Source of the DNA: Eledone cirrhosa
Taxonomy: Eukaryota
Reading direction: 5' to 3'
Length of the DNA stretch: 64,000 bases
NCBI GenBank assembly: GCA_964016885.1
Contig: OZ024740.1
Location: forward strand, 85,312,001-85,376,000
Below, one piece after another: positions 3,840-59,706 of this stretch. Within the stretch, counting starts at the first letter, position 1; each line of letters opens with the position of its first letter. The notes beneath the pieces were generated by a model that worked only from the letters and a program-made list of their open reading frames with translations, was not told the origin of the DNA and did no database searches. The position numbers were made by a program, and so were the translations under genes.

Positions 3840-5854
3840 ATATATATTTATTTATGTATGTATTTATTGTAGAAGGTTATAATTATTGCAATTGCTGTTC
3901 ATCTATTATGAAACTTATGTCGTCTCTGTTTGGTTAATGGTATTGAAGTTGGAACTTCAAAACATTTTTGTCAGAAAAATATAACATTTTTACTTAAGAT
4001 AATCTCAACTAACTATCGTTACATAATTTTATTGCCTTCAAAGAAATAAAAAAATAATTCACTCGACAAAGTTCATGTTCTTAAAACTATACTCCATTAA
4101 CCTATACATTTCATTGTTGTACACGGTAGCAGCACAATAAAATCACTATTTTCGTTGTTATTTTTAGTTTACAATGCTTAGTTTAACACTTTTAATACTA
4201 AACCAAGGCGACGAATTAATAGAGTCTTTAGAATGCATTGCGTAAATTGGTAAATTCATCCCCATACGTTTTACCCAGAGAGTAAATACTGAACATAAAT
4301 TCAAGTTTTTATTCGCAGTGTAGGCGGCGAATTTGCAGAGTCATTAACAGTTCGGATGGAATGCTTTGCGGTATTTGTTTCGTCTCTGCGCTCAAATACT
4401 GCCGAGCTCAACTTTACCTTTCATCCTTTCGGCTGTGCTAAGATCTGGAGAGCTATAGGCTTCACCAGGTTTTAAAAAGTGTCCAAAACACCGTATGTCA
4501 TTATGGAAGAGTTATATGTCCATGCGTACAATAATACTAAACCATCTGAAACTGCTCCTGGTTCTATGACACAAAACTGTTTGTTTTAAAATGTTTATAT
4601 TTACCTAAAACTAAAAAAATCATCCATCATAAAGGACCTTTGTTAAGTTATATTTTACATACCAGCTTTATAGCAAGCGAAAGATGTTGCTAGTTTACTA
4701 AATCCTTAATTAATTTGTTTTCAAAATTAATTGAAATACGGCAAAGAAAGGGTTACATATTTCACGTAATTTTAGCTTAGATACCCTATAGTTATCAACT
4801 GTATCCCAACAGCTAATTGCTTAAAGAATAGTTAATCCAATTTAGCATAATATCTTCTTTTACTTTAAAAACAACTGTGGTACACGACTCCCTTTTCTAT
4901 CGTAAATCTATCACCGGATCACATTTTGTCTTGAAAACTTATTAATAACTACCATTTTTATGTCAATTGGTCACTGCTTAAATTTAGTTATTGTAATATA
5001 AATACTTTATATCAATCACTCTTTATTTAGTAAATTTTATTCCGCAAGACAAAATCTTAAAATTCTTGTATTTCTATTGGGGGTGGTGGTTATACCACCA
5101 ATCAAGGCATACGCACCGAGTGAGTTTCACTTGAGTTTTATTAATCAAATACTAATTAGTTGATCACCCAATCAATTAATTAATTAATTATCAAAGTCCT
5201 TCCACCACAGCCTGTGGCCTGATCGATGGCTATTGCTCTTCACCCCCACTTAACCTTTTCTTCCTCTTTCAGGGCGTTAATGAAGTCAGTAATACCAGAC
5301 ATGATATATGAGATGATTTTTAATAGAAAACTTGTAGTGAACAGCCCATTTTTTGTTTCGTTTCCTTTTTTTACCATAGCATATACGTTTCCAGAAAACA
5401 TCAGCCATTAAGTTCTTGAGTGATTATTTTTTCATGTCATATCCAGGTAGACATAAATCTTAGCATATCTAGAGATGGGAGAAATGAAAAGTATGATGAA
5501 TATTTCCTTACCTAAAAAAACATAAATGAAATGAAAACATATCAACGACCAGAAATCGAAACCAAGTTGTAGACTTGACTTCCTAGTAGCTTATATTCTT
5601 CTCTTCAATGTCGTCAACTGTCATATATCAAATATGGATGAATGATACGTTAAAAGCCGGATCCACCGTGATTATTCCCACACAGCTATAAACATGGTAA
5701 AATAATTTAAGTACTGTCGACATGTGAAAATAATATACTTGACAAAGAAATGTTGATGTATTAACAATAGAATGGGTGTTTCTTTTAATCACGCTTTTCT
5801 CTCAAAACTATGTTTTAGCCAGCTGAAGTACAAAAAACTACATTTTATGACTGC

Positions 5855-6860: not shown

Positions 6861-8319
6861 ATATAATGAAAGTAAGTGTTCGAGAAGCTCTATCAAGAAC
6901 ATAATAATATACCCGTCAAGACAAGTCGACATTGACTATCCGGTTACTTATGACTCACTCTATATATGATTTGGTTGTGGTACACCAGGCCTAAGATCGC
7001 CAAGAATTATTTTTATTGAAGAATTTCTTCACAAAAACTTTACGAAGTTTTCGAAATAAGTCTTTATCTCTTTTATTTATGACATTTGACAGAACAGTTG
7101 GTACATTTTCATAGTTTCTTATTAATTTCAGCTTATTAAACTTTGGCCCACTTAACATTAAAACTAAATAGGGTTGATAATTGGTGTTGTTCATTACACG
7201 ACAAATGCCTATATGTTCAAGTTAGAGTGAGAAAGGAAAGAGAAATGGGAGTTAGGAAAGAAACAGACAGTATGTAAGAGGAAGAGCTTTAAGGATTCGG
7301 GGGGGGGGGGGGGATTATAAAGAGAAAAAGTAAAGGAAAGAATGATATAATAAATAGATACATATGAGAGAAGAAAGTGTGTGTGTGTGTGTTTCAGAAA
7401 CTGTAAAACTAGAAACAAAACTACGTAAACTGATCTCTTTTTTTTTGTAAAACAAATATGGTCGTATGCCCACTTAAATATAGAACAGTGTTTGCAACAC
7501 CTTTTTAGACTACCATCCCCTTATATTTCATAAAGTCGATAAAAAAAATTATACATTGAAAATTAAATGTGAAGATTTTAAAACTAATTACATTTAAGCA
7601 TTTATTGAATAAAGGTGACAATTTTACTAGCAACTACTAATTTGTATTTTCCCCTTTCCTATTCCTCCATTCTATTTTCTAACGACCGTCTACCACTCCC
7701 TTGCTTTCCTGTGCTCCACCCACCTCGAGTCACCCATCACTCCTAGGAACGCGAAAGGGCCTACTTTGGAAATCGCTCATGTAGAACATTCATGCACAAG
7801 GCATTGTTTTGTATGTTATCTGATTCAATAGCCGTAAGCGGAAATTTGAATAACATTAACAAATTTACATCACTTGTTGAGTCACTTGGAAATTGAAAAG
7901 CTTTCTGTAAATGAATATATAGAATCGTTAAATGAAGTTTCATAACGTGGTGTAATCTTTAAATCAATTCATGGGCCCTGAACAGCTGTTTTCTTCGAGA
8001 GAAGAGGAGAGAGAGGGGGGGGGGTAATTGAGTGAGAAAGAGAAATAATTGACTCTAGTACTGAACAGATTGATACGTTATTTATCGATCTCGAAAGGAT
8101 AAAATGCAACGTTGATCTCAACAGAATTTTAACTCAGACCACAGAAAACTGGATTGAATACCGCAAAACATTTTATCTGGCGTTTTAACGACTCTGTCAA
8201 TTTACCGCCTTAACCGTTAAATGTGAGACAATGTATTTATAGGATATTTTACATTTCTTACATGGTTCGTGGCGGTTCCACTTTTATAGAGAATATTTAA
8301 ATATAACGAAGTTTAAAGT

Positions 8320-8570
8320 CTGTCTCGAATCCGGAGCCTCATCAGACTGGTGCTTATCTCAGTTTCCATGATGTGAAGCAACTGAGAGTAAAATAATCCT
8401 CCTTGGATAGAACCAGTCCATCGCAGGGTTAAATCCCCAGTTACTGCTGGCACTCATTTTCAGCAGAGTATACTAGAGCAACGTGAAATTAATCCAGACC
8501 AGGAATCGAACCCACAACATTATGATCGTAAGTCCAACACTCTTGCTATTAGGCCACGCATCTCCACAAA
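8320..8570 (-). mobile_element. SINE family B
   Basis: tRNA-like head on - strand (GGAATCGAACCC on +), CCATCGCAGGGTT...CACTCATTTTCAGC core. Confidence 0.65.
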
Positions 8571-8849
8571 GGGCATTGCATATTTAAATAAAAGCATCTG
8601 TCTTAATGTACAGACCTCCAAAGAAGACTGCCTGTGGTCATTCATGTAACATTCTTACTAGAAATAGTGGCCAATATCTCCATAAAACTACACGGTATCA
8701 TCTTAAAAACAAAGGAAAGATACATTATACAATATTTCTTCGATTTACTGTTTGAAAAAATGGGATAGCCACAACTGGAATGGCTTTAATCATTGGTCCA
8801 TTTAATCAGAGAAAATTGGGATTAAACAACAATTCACTACTCGCTAAAT

Positions 8850-16446: not shown

Positions 16447-16796
16447 ATGCACACACATTATGCATGTATGTATGTAAAGGGTAAACAGAAATAACAAAAA
16501 TAACAAAACAAACGACACAGTATATGGAAGAAATATATATTATGTGTGTGTGTCCTTGTGTGTGTGTCTGTATGTAGGTGTGTATATATAAGTGTGTGTG
16601 AATATATGTGTATGTATGTATATGTGTGTGCGAGGGTGTGAATGTGTGATAAGAATCTATCGATGTCGTATCTACCGGAAAGAAAGATAAGTCGATTTAT
16701 CCGGGATAACCCGGGATAACTGTATGACACACGAAAATAACTGATTGTTACAGTGTGTCAATTAATTAATTGTTCGATTTTGAAGGAAATGTGAAG

Positions 16797-17363
16797 AGAA
16801 GGCAACGACAACGTATGGACACCATACAGATGACAACGACAACGTATGGACACCATACAGAAGGCAACGACAACGTATGGACACCATACAGAAGACAACG
16901 ACAACGTATGGACACCATACAGAAGACAACGACAACGTATGGACACCATACAGAAGGCAACGACAACGTATGGACACCATACAGAAGACAACGACAACGT
17001 ATGGACACCATACAGAAGGCAACGACAACGTATGGACACCATACAGAAGGCAACGACAACGTATGGACACCATACAGAAGACAACGACAACGTATGGACA
17101 CCATACAGAAGGCAACGACAACGTATGGACACCATACAGAAGACAACGACAACGTATGGACACCATACAGAAGGCAACGACAACGTATGGACACCATACA
17201 GAAGGCAACGACAACGTATGGACACCATACAGAAGACAACGACAACGTATGGACACCATACAGAAGACAACGACAACGTATGGACACCATACAGAAGACA
17301 ACGACAACGTATGGACACCATACAGAAGACAACGACAACGTATGGACACCATACAGAAGACAA
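16797..17363. repeat. 31-bp minisatellite, 18 copies plus a partial
   Basis: Unit AGAAG(G/A)CAACGACAACGTATGGACACCATAC with internal hairpin GTATGG-ACA-CCATAC. Confidence 0.95.
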
Positions 17364-17580
17364 TAATTGTTTCTACTTTAGGCACAAGGCCAGCAATTTG
17401 AGAGGAGGGGGAAAGTCGATTAAATCGACCACAGTACACATTGGTGCTTTTATCGACTACGTAAGGATGAAAAGCAAAGCTAACCTCAGCGGGATATGAA
17501 CTCAGAACGTAAAGGGCCATAACTCCCTGCTGTGAATCATGGTGTCCGATGCTCTACCGATAGTGCCAACCTATCACCCT
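17362..17580 (-). mobile_element. SINE family A abutting the minisatellite
   Basis: Tail AATAATTGTTTCTACTTTAGGCACAAGGCC and core on - strand. Confidence 0.85.
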
Positions 17581-23659: not shown

Positions 23660-25120
<1,461 letters not shown>

Positions 25121-25182
25121 TTGGTAAAAGGAAAAGAAAATGCTGACAAATTGTTCCCAGTGAAAAATAGTTTAATTAGGAA

Positions 25183-26192
25183 CTAGCAGTAAAGCCCGGC
25201 GTTGCTCGGGGTCGCTCAGTAGCTGTGTTAAAGTTACAATGTTAAGTTTCTTTCTTGGCTTAAAAACTGTAGTGTCTACTGTGCAGACTTGCATGTGGTG
25301 TTTTTGATTAATATTCCCTCAACCAACAATATGCCTTATGAAGTTAAGAAAACATAACGATAACCCGAATGTTATAACAAAAGAGGATGCTGGGGATAGA
25401 AACTGCACTGGTTATTTATTAACAAAGATCGAAAATGTAAACACTGCAACGCAGAGAAAAACATTAGCATAACCAAATTATCAGTTATGTCTGTCTGCAC
25501 GCCTATATCACCTCTCTGCACGACTGTCTGTCTGCACGCCTATATCACCTCTCTGCACGACTGTCTGTCTGCACGCCTATATCACCTCTCTGCACGACTG
25601 TCTGTCTGCACGCCTATATCACCTCTCTGCACGACTGTCTGTCTGCACGCCTATATCACCTCTCTGCACGACTGTCTGTCTGCACGCGTATATCACCTCT
25701 CTGCACGACTGTCTGTCTGCACGCCTAACGACGAAATATTTGCTTGTTTTACGTAGTCTTTAAATAGACTTGTTTTCAAGTAAAAATATTGTTTTAAAAT
25801 GCTTTTAAATGGAAATGAAGCAAAACGGAAGCTTAGTGTTCGAACTGATGAATTTTGCAGGTCAATATTTTGCTGGCTCGACAACTGTCTGTTCGTGTAT
25901 TGTGTTAATGTCATTTTAAACGCTGAGAAAGCCAGCGTAATTTTTTACGTAAGACGCTCAATGTAAACAGAACAAAGGGAAATAACTGATAACTTACGCT
26001 CAAAAATCGATACATTATATTCGATTTCGTCACATAGGGTGGGTCAATTTGAAATATTTTTTTTCCGATGTCTTCGCTAGGGCTCAATGTACAAGTCTAG
26101 CAATTTCGGTGCAATTCCGTGAGAGATTCTAAGAGGAGATGTGTGCCAAAAATCGATAGACAGACAGACAACCACAGTTTTATATATATAGA
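25183..26192 (-). mobile_element. Non-autonomous Helitron (Lep1-like architecture)
   Basis: On - strand: 5' TCTATATATATAAAA, (CTGT)n near the 5' end, 3' hairpin CCCGAGCAACGCCGGG, CTAG end; inserted between A and T with no TSD. Confidence 0.85.
25488..25726. repeat. 37-bp minisatellite inside the Helitron (about 6.4 copies)
   Basis: Unit TGTCTGTCTGCACGCCTATATCACCTCTCTGCACGAC. Confidence 0.93.
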
Positions 26193-28583: not shown

Positions 28584-29021
28584 TTATCTCTTTCTCTTAA
28601 TTTCGAGTATATTTTTTTGACCGGCCACCTTCCTGGTGGCAAGGTTGTAAAAGAAAAGAAATTGTCATCCCTTGAATCGCAAGAATGTTTTGCAAATTTT
28701 GAAGGTGCCAGCTATCGCAGCCATTTGTAGACTCTGAATTAGGGAGCTGCGCTCTTTGTCCACAAATCCAAGTTCAGTCATACTTTGGTCCAAGCGGGTT
28801 GGTATATAACCCATAGCTCCAATAATGATGCGTATGAAGCTAAAGCTGTATCTTGGATACTGGATTTGTAAACTCCTCATCAATGGTGCGTAGATGTCCT
28901 CCTTCTCCTGTATTTTTCTGACAACGTTTAAATCAAGTGGGCAGCTGATCTCCACAACACAACACGTTTTCAATGTGTGGTCCCAAACAACAATATCAGG
29001 CCGGTTGTGCTTTAATTTGGT
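28584..29021 (-). mobile_element. R4/Dong-like non-LTR retrotransposon 3' end (restriction-like endonuclease)
   Basis: 'KHNRPDIVVWD...VVEISCPLDLNV..K..EK..Y' PD-(D/E)xK motif; bounded by (CATA)n on both sides. Confidence 0.85.
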
Positions 29022-29476
29022 GTATGTATGTATGTATGTATGTATGTATGTATGTATGTATGTATGTATGTATGTATGTATGTATGTATGTATGTATGTA
29101 TGTATGTATGTATATGTATTATGTCTGTCTGTATGTATGTATGTGTTGATATAATGATATATATAGAGAAAGATAGTTGGGATGAAAATGAAAGCGCATG
29201 GTTCCAGATTCAAACCTAAAACGTATGTAACCATAGTTATCTTCTTTCACGCAGTGTGAGGGAATATGTACAGCAGAAACTGTGTCGTATGTGATGCTCA
29301 GTTTACCTGAAGATTGCGTTAATAGTAGAAATGTCTATGAAATATTCCCTTACATAGTACATTGAGTAGATACTTCAGATGAAAGGTGAGATTTATTGAT
29401 ACATAGAAGACAAAACAGTGTCTCTGACTAAGTTTTAGAGTACGACATATATATAAATATATATATATATATGTTT

Positions 29477-29556
<80 letters not shown>

Positions 29557-29935
29557 TTTTGAATTAAAAGATTCCACCCATCTTCTTCCGTTCTGTCGGC
29601 TTATACGCCCGTTATTTTAAAACTATTTTATTTAGTCAAAGTTACGCTGAAACTTCCTCCTCCTCCTCCTTCTCCTTCTTCTTCTTCTTCTTCTTCACCC
29701 ATATATTCCTGAGAGGGTCATGGGGCAGAGTCCTCAAACACTCCTTCCAGCTGGTCCTGTCAGAAGCAACCTTTTCCAACTAATCGGTTGGACCTCCAAG
29801 CGAGACAAACTAAGCTCATGGATGTTATCCAACTATCTTGCTCGAGGTCTACCCCTGGGTCTCCTGCCGGTTAGTTTTGCCCGTAAAATCTGTCCAGTGA
29901 TTCTTTCCTGAGACATTCCAACCACATGCCTATAA

Positions 29936-30278
29936 TATTGGGTTGTTAATTCACTGAGGAACTGGAGTCATATCCAGTTCCTCAGTGAATTAACAACCCA
30001 ACAAGGAACTGGGCATATCAGAGTATTGACAATATTATACACCTAAACAACATATGTACTTGTCTATACCATACTAATTCAAACTGCCTGAAGAGGTCAC
30101 AGCCAAAGATGGCTGTCACTGAAATATATATAGCAGTAATAAACGAAGCTAAATTTTAATCATTTGACTTTTATTTAACTTTATTTTACACTACTCCGGA
30201 GTAACCAAACCAACCTGCGCACTTCGTCGAGTGCTCCAGCCTGCATACTGAGGTGTTGGTATACAACCAACATAAACT

Positions 30279-30282
<4 letters not shown>
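29936..30282 (+). mobile_element. HHR-bearing PLE-derived element, copy A (short fold-back head)
   Basis: Hairpin 29938-30002, HHR 30083-30137, tail runs into (TA)n; homologous to 30380-30925. Confidence 0.85.
30083..30137 (+). ncRNA. Minimal type-I hammerhead ribozyme
   Basis: ACTGC-CTGAAGA-GGTCACAGCCA..TGGCTGTCACT-GAAA-TATATA-TA-GCAGT. Confidence 0.85.
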
Positions 30283-30358
<76 letters not shown>

Positions 30359-30379
30359 GTATATATATATATATATATA

Positions 30380-30925
30380 TTGAGTATATGCTGGTTGTCT
30401 ACCGACACCTCAGTATGTAGAATGGAGCACTCGACGAAGTACACAGGTTGATTTGTTTACTCCGGAGTAATGTAATATAATTAAGTGAAATATGTAAAAT
30501 TTGGCTTCGTTTCCTATAAATTATAGATATACTGCTATATATATTTCGGTGACAGCCATCATTGGCTGTGACCTCTTCAGGCAGTCCGAATTGGTGTGGG
30601 AAGGACAGGTACACATGTTGTTGAAGTGTGTTTTACTCCGTCAATACATCGATATGTCCAGCTCCTGGTTGTGCTATTATTTCTCCGAGGAACTGGAATC
30701 ATATCTTCCAGTTCCTCAGAGAAATAACAACGCAACCAGGAGCTGGACATATCGATGTATTGACGGAGTAAAACACACTTCAACAACATGTGTACCTGTC
30801 TTTCCCACACCAATTCGGACTGCCTGAAGAGGTCACAGCCAATGATGGCTGTCACCGAAATATATATAGCAGTATATCTATAATTTATAGTAAACGAAGC
30901 CAAATTTTACATATTTCACTTAATT
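30380..30925. mobile_element. HHR-bearing PLE-derived element, copy B, with about 220-bp fold-back arms
   Basis: Near-perfect palindrome 30479-30925 centred at about 30702; HHRs at 30531-30585 (-) and 30819-30873 (+). Confidence 0.9.
30819..30873 (+). ncRNA. Minimal type-I hammerhead ribozyme (mirror copy 30531-30585 on -)
   Basis: Stem I ACTGC/GCAGT, CTGAAGA, long stem II, GAAA, palindromic TATATA stem III. Confidence 0.85.
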
Positions 30926-31377
30926 ATTTTATATATATATATATACACACACACATATGTATATGTATATTTATGTATATATTTGTGTCTGTGTGTGTAT
31001 AAGAACAATGTTGTCAGAACTGACATCTATGCAATGCAATCTTCAATTGTCTGCTATGAGAACCACCCAGTTACGTTGCCTTCTTATGGGCTCCATCTCC
31101 CTTTCATCTCTTGGATCAGATATTTTCCTGTCAGATATTTCCATTGCTGCGTGCACTGATGAGGTCCTTCCCACCACACACACACGCGCGCAGCCACCCT
31201 TCACACATATACTCAGAGCCTAGTGTGCGCTTTACTGTTCTTTAATACAGACCACCCTCTATAACACTTAGGATTTTCCTGATGACGTCACCATCACAAA
31301 ATAATAACATAATAAATGTGAATACAGCAGTATATATTTAATAGTTATAATGACTTTACCACAAGGTACTACCGCCC

Positions 31378-31379
<2 letters not shown>

Positions 31380-31416
<37 letters not shown>

Positions 31417-31429
31417 TATGTACATATAT

Positions 31430-31464
<35 letters not shown>

Positions 31465-31628
31465 TATATACATATATATATACATATATATATACATATA
31501 TATATACATATATATATACATATATATATACATATATATATACATATATATATACATATATATATACATATATATATATACATATATATACATATATATA
31601 TACATATATATATATACATATATATACA

Positions 31629-31670
<42 letters not shown>

Positions 31671-31748
31671 CATATATATACATATACATATATATATATA
31701 TACATATATATATACATATACATATATATATATATACATATATATACA

Positions 31749-31786
<38 letters not shown>

Positions 31787-31791
31787 CATAT

Positions 31792-31846
<55 letters not shown>

Positions 31847-31969
31847 ATATATATATACATAATATATATATATATACATATACATACATATATATATATA
31901 CATATACATACATATATATATATACATATACATACATATATACATATACATATACATACATATATACAT

Positions 31970-32008
<39 letters not shown>

Positions 32009-32393
32009 CATACATATATATATATATACATATATATATATACATATACATACATATATATATATATATATACATATACATACATATACATATATATATA
32101 TACATATACATACATATACATATATATATATACATATACATACATATACATATATATATATACATATACATACATATACATACATATATATATATATATA
32201 TACATATACATACATATACATACATATATATATATATATATACATATACATACATATATATATATATACATACATATATATATATATACATACATATATA
32301 TATATATATATACATACATATATATATATATACATACACATACATGTATATATATATATATATATACATACATATATATATACATATACATAC

Positions 32394-32427
<34 letters not shown>

Positions 32428-32602
32428 ATATATATACATATATATACATATACATATATATATATATATATATACATATACATACATATATATATATATA
32501 TATATACATATACATACATATATATATATATATACATACATACATATATATATATATTCATATACATACATATATATATATATATATACATATACATACA
32601 TA

Positions 32603-32638
<36 letters not shown>

Positions 32639-32747
32639 CATATACATACATATACATACATATATATATATACATATACATACATATACATACATATATA
32701 TATATATATATACATATACATACATATATATATATACATATATATAC

Positions 32748-32800
<53 letters not shown>

Positions 32801-32935
32801 CATATACATATATATATATTTATATATATATATATATATACACACATATATATATATATACATATACATATACATATACATATATTTATATATACACATT
32901 TATATATATATATACACACACATATATACATATAG
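31380..32935. repeat. About 1.55-kb (TA)n/(TACA)n compound microsatellite
   Basis: Direct reading; local 10-bp and 30-bp higher-order units. Confidence 0.95.
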
Positions 32936-33449
32936 GTGTGTGTTTGTGCGTGTGTTATTCATAAATAATGTTACTTTTCTATGACTAAGTTGTATTTTAA
33001 ATACACCATTTTTCAGATGTTTGTGATTCGGGTAAAAGTGTTGCTCTCCAAAGACGGTATTTAGTGTTCTCTGGCAACGTGTTGCACATACATATGGAAT
33101 TTTCTCTCGAAACAGTAACAGCTCAGCCGTTGGGTCCTAACAGTCTACTATATTTACACTCTACTATCCCAAGTATCGAGTTCTCTACTGAACAATGGTC
33201 TTACTAGTTTAAACTGGTAAAATCCTGATCTATCTACCCATTAGTTTTCAACCTATTTGTATTTTTCATTGTTATGGTATAAGTATGGGCACTACCTTCG
33301 GTCGTTTTTCTTGATGTCACACTTTACTATCTTTTGTGTTTACTCTGGACGATAATGTATTAACTTCTCGCTTCATTGAGTGCTTTGTGACTGCCCCTCA
33401 AACAACTCGATTAGTAACTGCTATATGGCAGCTACAACTTTGATTCATG

Positions 33450-51912: not shown

Positions 51913-51960
51913 GGTGTGTGTGTGTGTATCGTATATATATATATACACTACACACACACC

Positions 51961-52043
<83 letters not shown>

Positions 52044-52191
52044 TAATATATATATATATACATATTCTCTCTCTCTCTATATATATATACATGTATATAT
52101 ATATATATATGTGTGTGTGTGTATCGTATATATATATACACTACACACACACATATATTCCCTCGGTCCGATTTGACGAAAGTCGATCGTT

Positions 52192-52230
<39 letters not shown>

Positions 52231-52304
52231 TACACACAGACACACACACACATATATATATACATATATATATATATTATATATATATATATATATATAC
52301 ATAT

Positions 52305-52336
<32 letters not shown>

Positions 52337-52340
52337 CATG

Positions 52341-52375
<35 letters not shown>

Positions 52376-52460
52376 AGTATATATATATATATATATATAT
52401 ATACACTATACACACACCCACACACACCCACACACACACACACATATATATATATATACT

Positions 52461-52530
<70 letters not shown>

Positions 52531-52531
52531 T

Positions 52532-52580
<49 letters not shown>

Positions 52581-53226
52581 CTACACACACACACACATAT
52601 ATATATATATACACAACTCACCCATCTACTTACAGGTACTTACACATACAAACGTACATATATATTTGAAATGTGGTCGACCAGATGTTCATATGTACAT
52701 GCAGTATATGTGTGTTGAAAAGAAGACACACACATACATATGCATATTTGTGTATGTGTGTCTGTGTATGTGTATATATATATATATATATGTCTGTGTG
52801 TGTGTGTATGTGTGTCTGTGTATATATATATATATATGTCTGTGTGTGTGTGTATGTGTGTGTGTGGTAAATATATCAGTTATTCAAATTCATATGGTAT
52901 ATACTTTACTGTATAATATTCTGATCCCAAATCCTATAATATAATTATAATTTTGTTTGACATTTTCCTTCTGTAATTGTTGTGAGAGAGTCTCCCATAG
53001 CTGAGTTGATATGCTTGAAGATCTAGCAACAGAAACATCGTGTTCCTTGGCGTCTGTAAAATGATTGATTATGGGAAACTTCTGAATTCATATAGTATAC
53101 ACAGTCTCTATTTGTCACGTACGCACGCCTATGAATAGGCACATACAACGTTATTAGCTATGAGGTAAAGAAGGCGCCAGTATTTTTAATGTAATGCGTC
53201 AAGACATTTATAATTGCTTAATTAAT

Positions 53227-57409: not shown

Positions 57410-59706
<2,297 letters not shown>

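Follow-up and report, generated by a model that had tools for sequence, protein, structure and literature searches.

Two inverted, 3′-terminal copies of a Penelope-like element in a TA microsatellite of Eledone cirrhosa share a turning point and are likely explained by priming on both target strands

In the sections of PMC8557442 devoted to it, the Hydra clade of Penelope-like elements (PLEs) is characterized by an RWK motif, a change of DKG to DKT and a CxCX5C linker, and 'almost all' of its members are described to insert into (TA)n. For a Poseidon PLE, the protein was shown to cleave and to extend both target strands in vitro, with reverse transcription (RT) starting at two internal sites of the RNA, which lie next to each other and show no homology to the target; the sequence between them forms the genomic tail (PMC11167929). 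How PLE integration is completed, including the origin of tandem and inverted structures, is stated to be unknown in PMC11167929 as well as in PMC8557442. In this study, a stretch of 64,000 nucleotides of the Eledone cirrhosa genome (contig OZ024740.1, positions 85,312,001 to 85,376,000; called the window in the following) was analyzed, which carries two inverted PLE copies, A and B.

The structure is best explained by two independent insertions of the 3′-terminal ~320 nt of a PLE, both truncated at the 5′ side, with inverted arms likely resulting from priming on both target strands followed by head-to-head joining. The probability of this reading is estimated to be about 0.62. The structure in the window is an ordinary PLE insertion, and the junction hot spot described below is a modest clue to the joining step.

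Element positions were numbered from the centre of an 8-bp palindrome, TCATATGA, referred to as the axis; on this scale, the element ends at position 316 on its 3′ side, and inverted arms usually extend to position 221 at their outer end. The region 29500-31400 of the window was read directly and scanned for repeats. The direct part of copy A (29973..30283, + strand) comprises the last 311 nt of the PLE 3′ untranslated region (UTR) and pseudo-long terminal repeat (pLTR), corresponding to axis positions 6-316, and holds a 95-nt tail at 30189-30283. It is preceded by a short inverted arm (29938..29972, − strand), the reverse complement of the first ~34 nt past the turn. This arm of ~36 nt spans axis positions −1 (inner) to 34 (outer), its outer end adjoins TATAATA, and 28 nt are perfectly paired with 29974-30001; the same short-arm class was found in three other loci (L005, L021 and L034). 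The (TA)n tract at 30284..30379 is the target microsatellite and is common to the 3′ ends of both copies. Copy B, which belongs to an older subfamily, follows with its direct part on the − strand (30380..30705; 3′ end at 30380, turn at approximately 30699-30705) and a full-length inverted arm without tail (30706..30924, + strand; axis positions ~6-221). In the repeat scan, this fold-back (I1) consists of arms of 229 nt that are 97% complementary, with 7 nt in between. The sequence beyond the arm, (TA)7, represents the rest of the target (30925..30945). The coordinates and the repeat scan agree with an initial annotation of this locus, in which A (+) and B (−) were described as tail to tail within a single (TA)n tract, A with a short arm and B with an arm of ~220 bp.

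The same annotation had described the two copies as diverged, with a common turning point, and this holds true as well. Copies A and B are 77-88% alike and turn at the same element position, whereas the details of their junctions are unlike, namely GGAGTCATAT|CCAG in copy A and GGAATCATAT-C-TTCCAG in copy B. Since the same structure recurs genome-wide, the turning point shared by A and B is far beyond chance. The arm of copy B differs from its own body by 5 mismatches in ~200 nt and from the nearest other sampled body by 14, which bears out the earlier observation that the match of an arm is closer to its own partner than to the other copy. That the two fold-backs are independent, as also proposed earlier, is supported by the unlike junctions, by the different ages of the two subfamilies and by at least 10 state changes on a tree of 59 copies (see below).

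The direct part of copy A is 98.5% identical to positions 3874-4209 of the element in L139, a locus with a long copy, and the identity of the direct part of copy B to positions 3867-4200 of the same element is 78%. Copy A is 99-100% identical to many copies in the genome, while the nearest sampled copy of B reaches 85%. Copy A is therefore young and copy B old, and A was most likely inserted after B, in the (TA)n next to B's tail. Either orientation is possible for such an insertion because the TA repeat is the same on both strands. A second tail-to-tail pair was identified in locus L029. Further pieces of the PLE family were not found within the 64-kb window beyond A and B.

Two samples of genomic copies were used for the analysis of the breakpoints. 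The first was chosen by similarity with a query that contained the turn, and 29 other loci were fetched; in 27 of them the arm is 212-216 nt long with one common outer point, and in two the arm is short. The second sample followed the order of the genome and was blind to the 5′ structure. It consisted of the first 100 matches to a tail pattern minus the two of the window, resulting in 97 loci with 98 tail-anchored copies. All subsequent counts refer to this sample unless stated otherwise. Both samples and the copies of the window are flanked by (TA)n.

An inverted arm could be identified in 56 of the 98 copies. In 49 of these 56 the outer arm end lies at positions 217-223 and lacks the tail, a figure that is conditional on the tail-anchored sampling; the main positions are 221 and 217, and the outer arm end of copy B is the same common point. 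Genome-wide, 2070 sites stop at 221|(TA)n, compared to 2021 sites that continue into the tail. The inner arm ends were found within −8 to +10 of the axis, a span of 19 nt, in 28 of 56 arms, as were the starts of 28 of the 98 direct parts. With respect to a uniform spread over −230 to 316, the corresponding P values are ~4e-26 for the inner ends and ~3e-18 for the starts. The histogram of breakpoints suggested in the initial annotation, now run on 98 copies, thus displays a hot spot at the axis, whereas the remaining breakpoints are scattered.

Twelve of the 56 inverted copies turn at the axis on both sides (axis palindromes) and 15 are roughly symmetric elsewhere. The off-axis symmetric turns are located upstream at about −120, −64, −47/−57 and −16, and downstream at 15, 26/37, 57, 71/83, 83, 117/107, 129 (twice), 166, 173/161 and 249/244. 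In 16 copies a complete arm reaching the axis is combined with a body cut at −20 to 259, three copies represent the reverse case with only the body at the axis, and in ten neither end is at the axis, giving 29 asymmetric junctions. No arm was scored in 42 copies, whose start is at the axis in 13 and elsewhere in 16, and the other 13 continue for more than 500 nt; this arm-less class includes two copies (L036 and L061) with arms of 36-39 nt for which the (TA)n match outscored the arm. Microhomology with the (TA)n target was rejected as an explanation for the arm end and for the hot spot, since the best TA run of the element, 9 nt at positions 157-165, is used by none of the 56 arm ends and by none of the 42 arm-less starts.

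The turning point was then compared with copies that are not inverted. At 824 non-inverted loci (25-mer, exact, genome-wide) the sequence reads TTTGAATTCAT|ATGACTCCAGTTCC, and GAGGAACTGG consequently arises only upon inversion. In addition, 29 sampled copies with a complete 3′ end continue upstream without inversion, reading ...CTGAAATTCGTTTGTTTGAATTCAT|ATGACTCCAGTTCCTC. A 10-bp hairpin, GAGGAACTGG-loop-CCAGTTCCTC, had been proposed as a built-in feature of the element in the initial annotation. The non-inverted copies are without it, the 824 exact loci reading TTTGAATTCATATGACTCCAGTTCC, so that of the programmed origin suggested there the non-random turning point stands (28 of 56 arms in a 19-nt span) and the built-in hairpin as its cause does not. 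What the element itself carries at the turning point is an 8-bp palindrome, TCATATGA. Another built-in 8-bp repeat, CCAGTTCC (7-14) with GGAACTGG (38-45), is centred at position 26, where no hot spot was observed. Exact searches of the genome revealed 201 loci with the perfect palindromic 28-mer and 13 with the junction of copy A.

The junctions at the axis occur in several forms: an overlap of 8 nt (in 7 of the 12 axis palindromes), an overlap of 2 nt (CATATATG), a blunt joint, a blunt joint with 1-2 filler bases, and a loss of 4 nt on either side. Arms that are joined to unrelated body positions, with an overlap of 0-3 nt, also stop at the axis. Three of the 15 symmetric off-axis junctions lie exactly on self-complementary sequence, and the others are near such sequence or unclear. 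L115 turns on ACATATGT with an overlap of 8 nt, and L059 and L064 turn on the hairpin GTGACAGCC-loop-GGCTGTCAC, the 9-bp stem of a hammerhead-like helix II, with an overlap of 24 nt.

These coincidences, together with a 4-nt loop at the junction of L124, are what would be expected if a single nascent cDNA snapped back at a self-complementary stretch (TCATATGA, ACATATGT or the helix II hairpin) and copied itself as far as 221, where the protein-bound tail would block further synthesis. Such self-priming had been put forward in the initial annotation, yet as the general mechanism it is considered unlikely. A strand that copies itself cannot yield the 29 asymmetric junctions (16 + 3 + 10), and by itself it leaves the fixed, tail-less outer end unexplained. 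Moreover, 13 arm-less copies end at the same point, a loopless palindrome of 4-8 nt cannot fold on itself, and a PLE has been found to prime on both strands in vitro (PMC11167929).

According to the preferred explanation, both nicked strands of the (TA)n target would prime cDNA synthesis on the element RNA, and positions 316 and 221 would represent the two internal RT start sites, in line with the start sites published for the Poseidon PLE (PMC11167929). In this scheme, the other target strand would serve as the primer for a second cDNA, and the inverted arm would be this cDNA after its head-to-head joining to the first. The hot spot may reflect a short template RNA whose 5′ end lies at one discrete place, A(−1)/C(−2), and is provided by a start site within the pLTR or by a strong stop. 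A discrete template end at this point is suggested because arms stop there with unrelated bodies, because arm-less copies start there and because ATAT pairing could give a perfect centre. Run-off cDNAs would end in ...CATAT, and annealing of their self-complementary ATAT ends could result in the perfect palindrome GGAGTCAT|ATGACTCC or in variants close to it; other pairing registers could give the variants observed.

The full-length template RNA was also considered as the origin of this end and was rejected. The lengths of the upstream pLTRs vary among 20 full-type copies; they start at −596 to 282 or off-locus, and none of the 20 starts at −8 to +10, the nearest being −11 and −29. Since upstream pLTRs do not start at the axis, the template end would have to be that of a short pLTR transcript or a strong stop. 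In its most specific version, the scheme comprises a short pLTR RNA starting inside TCATATGA, an enzyme dimer, priming on both strands and zipping of the cDNAs through ATAT, so that the palindromes would be programmed by the template. This version is put forward tentatively and is regarded as possible at best. If true, template-programmed joining would be the missing step of PLE integration and would explain the paired hammerhead motifs on opposite strands that are scattered in animal genomes.

Several points weigh against the preferred explanation. The choice of the start site was the same for both strands in the in vitro system (PMC11167929), and the upstream pLTRs do not support the axis as a full-length template end, as just described. 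The symmetric junctions of L059, L064 and L115 fit the snap-back of one strand equally well. The 13 loci with the odd junction of copy A and the 92-100% likeness of the 40 best matches argue that some palindromes may be copied as a whole. The count of outer ends is affected by the sampling and the arm-less class by its two short-armed members, as stated above. With regard to the protein, the GIY-YIG domain (Pfam) was matched weakly, with 19.8 bits compared to a cut-off of 22.6 and on an open reading frame (ORF) fragment. A Pfam scan of the whole ORF of 892 aa gave nothing useful, and no match at E up to 1 was found in a profile search of solved structures with the ORF.

The copying of whole palindromes was examined further. 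One or more palindromic, non-autonomous master copies could be transcribed as a whole hairpin, with copy A being a 5′-truncated descendant. The 40 best matches of copy A are 92-100% identical, the full arm of 212-216 nt is present in 27 of 29 other loci, the asymmetric junction of copy A recurs in 13 loci, and read-through would be hidden by the (TA)n on both flanks. These loci, however, were chosen by likeness to a query holding the junction, and axis palindromes account for only 12 of the 98 genome-ordered copies. A tree was built of 59 copies with a complete 3′ part, among them 14 axis palindromes. The axis palindromes need at least 10 state changes on this tree, and the starred branches alone force four; the mean of the shuffled data is 12.6 changes, and 15 of 500 shuffles were as low. 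They range from the oldest rungs (B, L086 and L073) to the youngest. One set of copies with identical sequence contains three palindromic copies and one long non-inverted copy, the junction centres vary among near-identical copies, and the junction form of copy A is found on three allele backgrounds and, as a mirror image, in L027. Judged from these sequences, axis palindromes arose repeatedly. A single ancestral palindromic master, named in the initial annotation as one of the findings that would refute its proposal, is rejected, as the palindromes are spread over the family tree. Transcribed masters as the general source are accordingly improbable, although some copies may have been produced from whole palindromes.

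The mismatches between arm and body were analyzed as well. At 10 of 74 mismatches both states are common alleles of the family, compared to ~2 expected, which is a weak hint at two template molecules behind arm and body. Editing of a hairpin transcript was considered and rejected, since an excess of A>G, as editing of a long RNA hairpin transcribed from a master might leave, was missing (8 A>G versus 4 T>C).

Assembling long palindromes and TA repeats is difficult, and the centres of palindromes tend to suffer deletions. On these general grounds the structures could have resulted from rearrangement after insertion or from the assembly itself. This is hardly credible, because hundreds of loci that differ in their flanks show the same architecture, 19 asymmetric copies have one side that is exactly complete, and the same sequence was found in short contigs of three other public runs. 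The contigs of four runs contained no strand-changing joints and no molecule starts. In the short contigs of one run (X1), the summed word depth along positions 8100-8795 of L128 is ~37,000 upstream of the axis and ~325,000 downstream (about 9-fold), with a peak at ~825,000 over the hammerhead-like region; contig depth neither measures copy number nor allows a ranking of parts of a stretch, and these values were not used as evidence.

For the characterization of the element itself, the genome of 3.0 Gb was searched with a 348-nt query of copy A, resulting in 899 first-look candidates, of which the best 40 were scored and found to be 92-100% identical. The direct part of copy A alone is 97-100% identical to the 40 scored copies. 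The family comprises thousands of copies: a 31-nt pattern near the 3′ end of the tail has 2876 exact matches, whereas the reversed control has none. The 316-nt stretch shared by A and B is the end of a 3′ UTR of 1.4 kb in longer copies. In L139, tail positions 257-316 run directly into the 5′ UTR and the ORF, and 52 such junctions are present in the genome; the last ~95 nt (222-316) are therefore the PLE tail and pLTR overlap. In L139 the unit measures ~4.15 kb, counted from the beginning of the 5′ UTR up to position 316.

The ORF of L139 encodes 892 aa. A protein query of the RT part gave 37697 first-look candidates, and among 150 that were scored, open frames of up to 896 aa were found. At E up to 1e-5, 43 relatives were identified, which are located on contigs of 2.0-4 kb. 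An alignment of 28 sequences retains RWK, DKT, YRDD, CxCX5C, a YIG...FK.R block, CxxC-E and CxH. The YRDD core is kept in all 28 sequences, and the instances MRWKAF, ADKTNN and CNCRNPESC are kept across the alignment. RVT_1 (Pfam) was detected with 31.4 bits (cut-off 29.6) in a relative with 36% identity, P0025. Because the Pfam GIY-YIG score is below its cut-off and the whole ORF remained unmatched, the endonuclease (EN) call rests on the conserved motifs. These point to an EN+ PLE with an RT followed by a C-terminal GIY-YIG-like domain in one ORF. Taken together with the pLTR, the tail and the inverted truncated copies, they agree with the earlier classification as a PLE. The clade is probably Hydra, an assignment made by motifs and not by a tree.

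In contrast to this classification, the earlier view of the loop (EELESY) as a remnant of the GIY-YIG C-terminus had to be abandoned. That frame has stops on both sides, and the GIY-YIG-like frame of longer copies stops ~1.1 kb upstream of the turn, so that no remnant is present at the loop. In L128 the ORF ends at 7374 and the axis is at 8476/8477; in L139 the ORF ends at 5797.

Two cephalopod entries, P0019 and P0044, are the only relatives with a name, given as 'GATA zinc finger domain-containing protein 14-like' and 'PH domain-containing protein'. In both cases a PLE ORF, or a fusion with one, has probably been mistaken for a host gene. Long copies with ORF are often arranged head to head at a distance of 1.4-3.7 kb, for example C28:119679563(−)/119681602(+), C1:172917401(−)/172921081(+) and C4:287391392(−)/287394166(+). 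These pairs represent the inverted arrangement on a larger scale. In L138 (901-3139), a tandem array (period 476 bp, 99.4-99.8% identity) was found just upstream of a 5′-truncated PLE copy in a TA repeat. The 3′ UTR contains an internal degenerate duplication (L128 8250-8480 versus 8470-8700; also L044), in which a unit beginning with GAATTCTATAGACTTC at about −225 is similar to the one beginning with GAATTCATATGACTCC at the axis, and a block of 34 nt is repeated at 85% identity. A breakpoint of L060 is located at −225 as well.

A hammerhead-like core was recognized by eye in copy A at 30083..30137 (+ strand), with a mirrored motif in both parts of copy B. It was read as ACTGC / CTGAAGA / helix II of 9-10 bp / GAAA / TATATATA / GCAGT, with the predicted cut before 30133. 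The G10.1-C11.1 pair is visible in copy B, and a palindromic helix III with its loop is legible by eye. This arrangement fits the features of PLE hammerhead ribozymes in the corresponding part of PMC4209133. No hammerhead or other ribozyme was found in Rfam at E up to 10, in scans of the window region, of 91 nt surrounding the motif and of a 681-nt part of a long copy. A second hammerhead that would cut at the axis, before C(−2), was sought by eye and dismissed: GAAA and helix III are present upstream, but the CUGANGA box is missing, its C3 being lost in young copies.

Only 1-2 of the 98 copies have a breakpoint at position 166, where the cut is predicted. Three full-type copies have upstream pLTRs beginning at 164, 173 and 177, and a single fold-back has its turn at 166 (L148, L149, L155 and L077). 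The region near the predicted cut is thus a possible minor second hot spot. The only Rfam matches were microRNA (MIR) models, which fitted the PLE hairpins of the window (30603-30801 and 30216-30446) below threshold, MIR2646 with 118 bits and MIR841 with 69 bits. The scores are far below the gathering scores, and the stubs might be mistaken for hairpin RNA genes. For genome annotation, the hairpins of ~540 bp in TA repeats described here should be read as PLE stubs and not as microRNA precursors or foldback DNA transposons.

The surroundings of the insertion site are rich in microsatellites, with (TATG)n, (TG)n, (CTT/CTC)n and a TA-rich tract of 400 bp at 29020-29110, 29480-29555, 29650-29695 and 31380-31990. 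The TA-rich tract has a 12-nt periodicity and folds on itself (I2: arms of 203 nt, 85%). Stop-free frames of 250-433 aa were found in the window at 23885-25186, 16758-17553, 51914-52669 and 58879-59628; those at 31268-32984 fall on TA-rich sequence of low complexity.

The thousands of young insertions of a single family constitute a natural record of the PLE joining step. This record includes the fixed, tail-less arm end, the approximately equal use of the two ends, the sharp hot spot at the terminal palindrome and the spectrum of overlaps and fillers. In twin priming of L1, the second target strand primes a second cDNA, and the inverted 5′ part is joined by microhomology. The segments of L1 are successive parts of the RNA, whereas here the same 3′ stretch is used twice with a fixed second start. 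A product of the L1 type was therefore rejected, since arm (1-221) and body (1-316) overlap and are not adjacent segments. Because arm and body cover the same 3′ stretch, true palindromes arise here.

The element is largely consistent with the Hydra clade as described in those sections of PMC8557442 which treat it. Shared features are one ORF that encodes an RT with a GIY-YIG-like domain behind it, the motifs RWK, DKT, CxCX5C and CxxC/CxH, the insertion into (TA)n, the pLTR, the tail at one end, an inverted 5′-truncated copy and the aquatic invertebrate hosts; the putative hammerhead-like core of the pLTR, read by eye, would be a further one. The unit of ~4.1 kb with its 3′ UTR of 1.4 kb is different from the 'generally short (<3 kb)' elements given there, and the tail of 95 nt is longer than the 30-40 nt described.

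Animal non-LTR retrozymes (PMC7229834; bioRxiv 10.64898/2026.07.22.740005) are likewise short, non-coding derivatives of a PLE pLTR that are mobilised by PLEs, and they carry hammerhead motifs comparable to the putative core read by eye here. Retrozymes are described as tandem arrays; the copies in this study are dispersed single (TA)n insertions, often palindromic and without an Rfam hammerhead. A retrozyme tandem array was thus rejected, as the copies are single and dispersed and only one partial direct tandem was found (L052). A foldback or miniature inverted-repeat DNA transposon was rejected in view of the unpaired 95-nt tail at one end, the one-sided truncation and the identity of the sequence with the 3′ UTR of an RT element.

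The closest biochemical parallel is the Poseidon PLE of Anolis (PAc; PMC11167929). In both systems, both strands are cut and extended, two internal starts are used with the tail between them, and the targets are AT-rich, provided that the preferred explanation is correct for the copies described here. The data for PAc are the biochemistry of another clade, and the joining of the cDNAs is not addressed there. To these, the genomic record of Eledone cirrhosa adds a hot spot at an 8-bp palindrome as well as the finding that tail-bearing and tail-less ends are approximately equal in number (2021 versus 2070).

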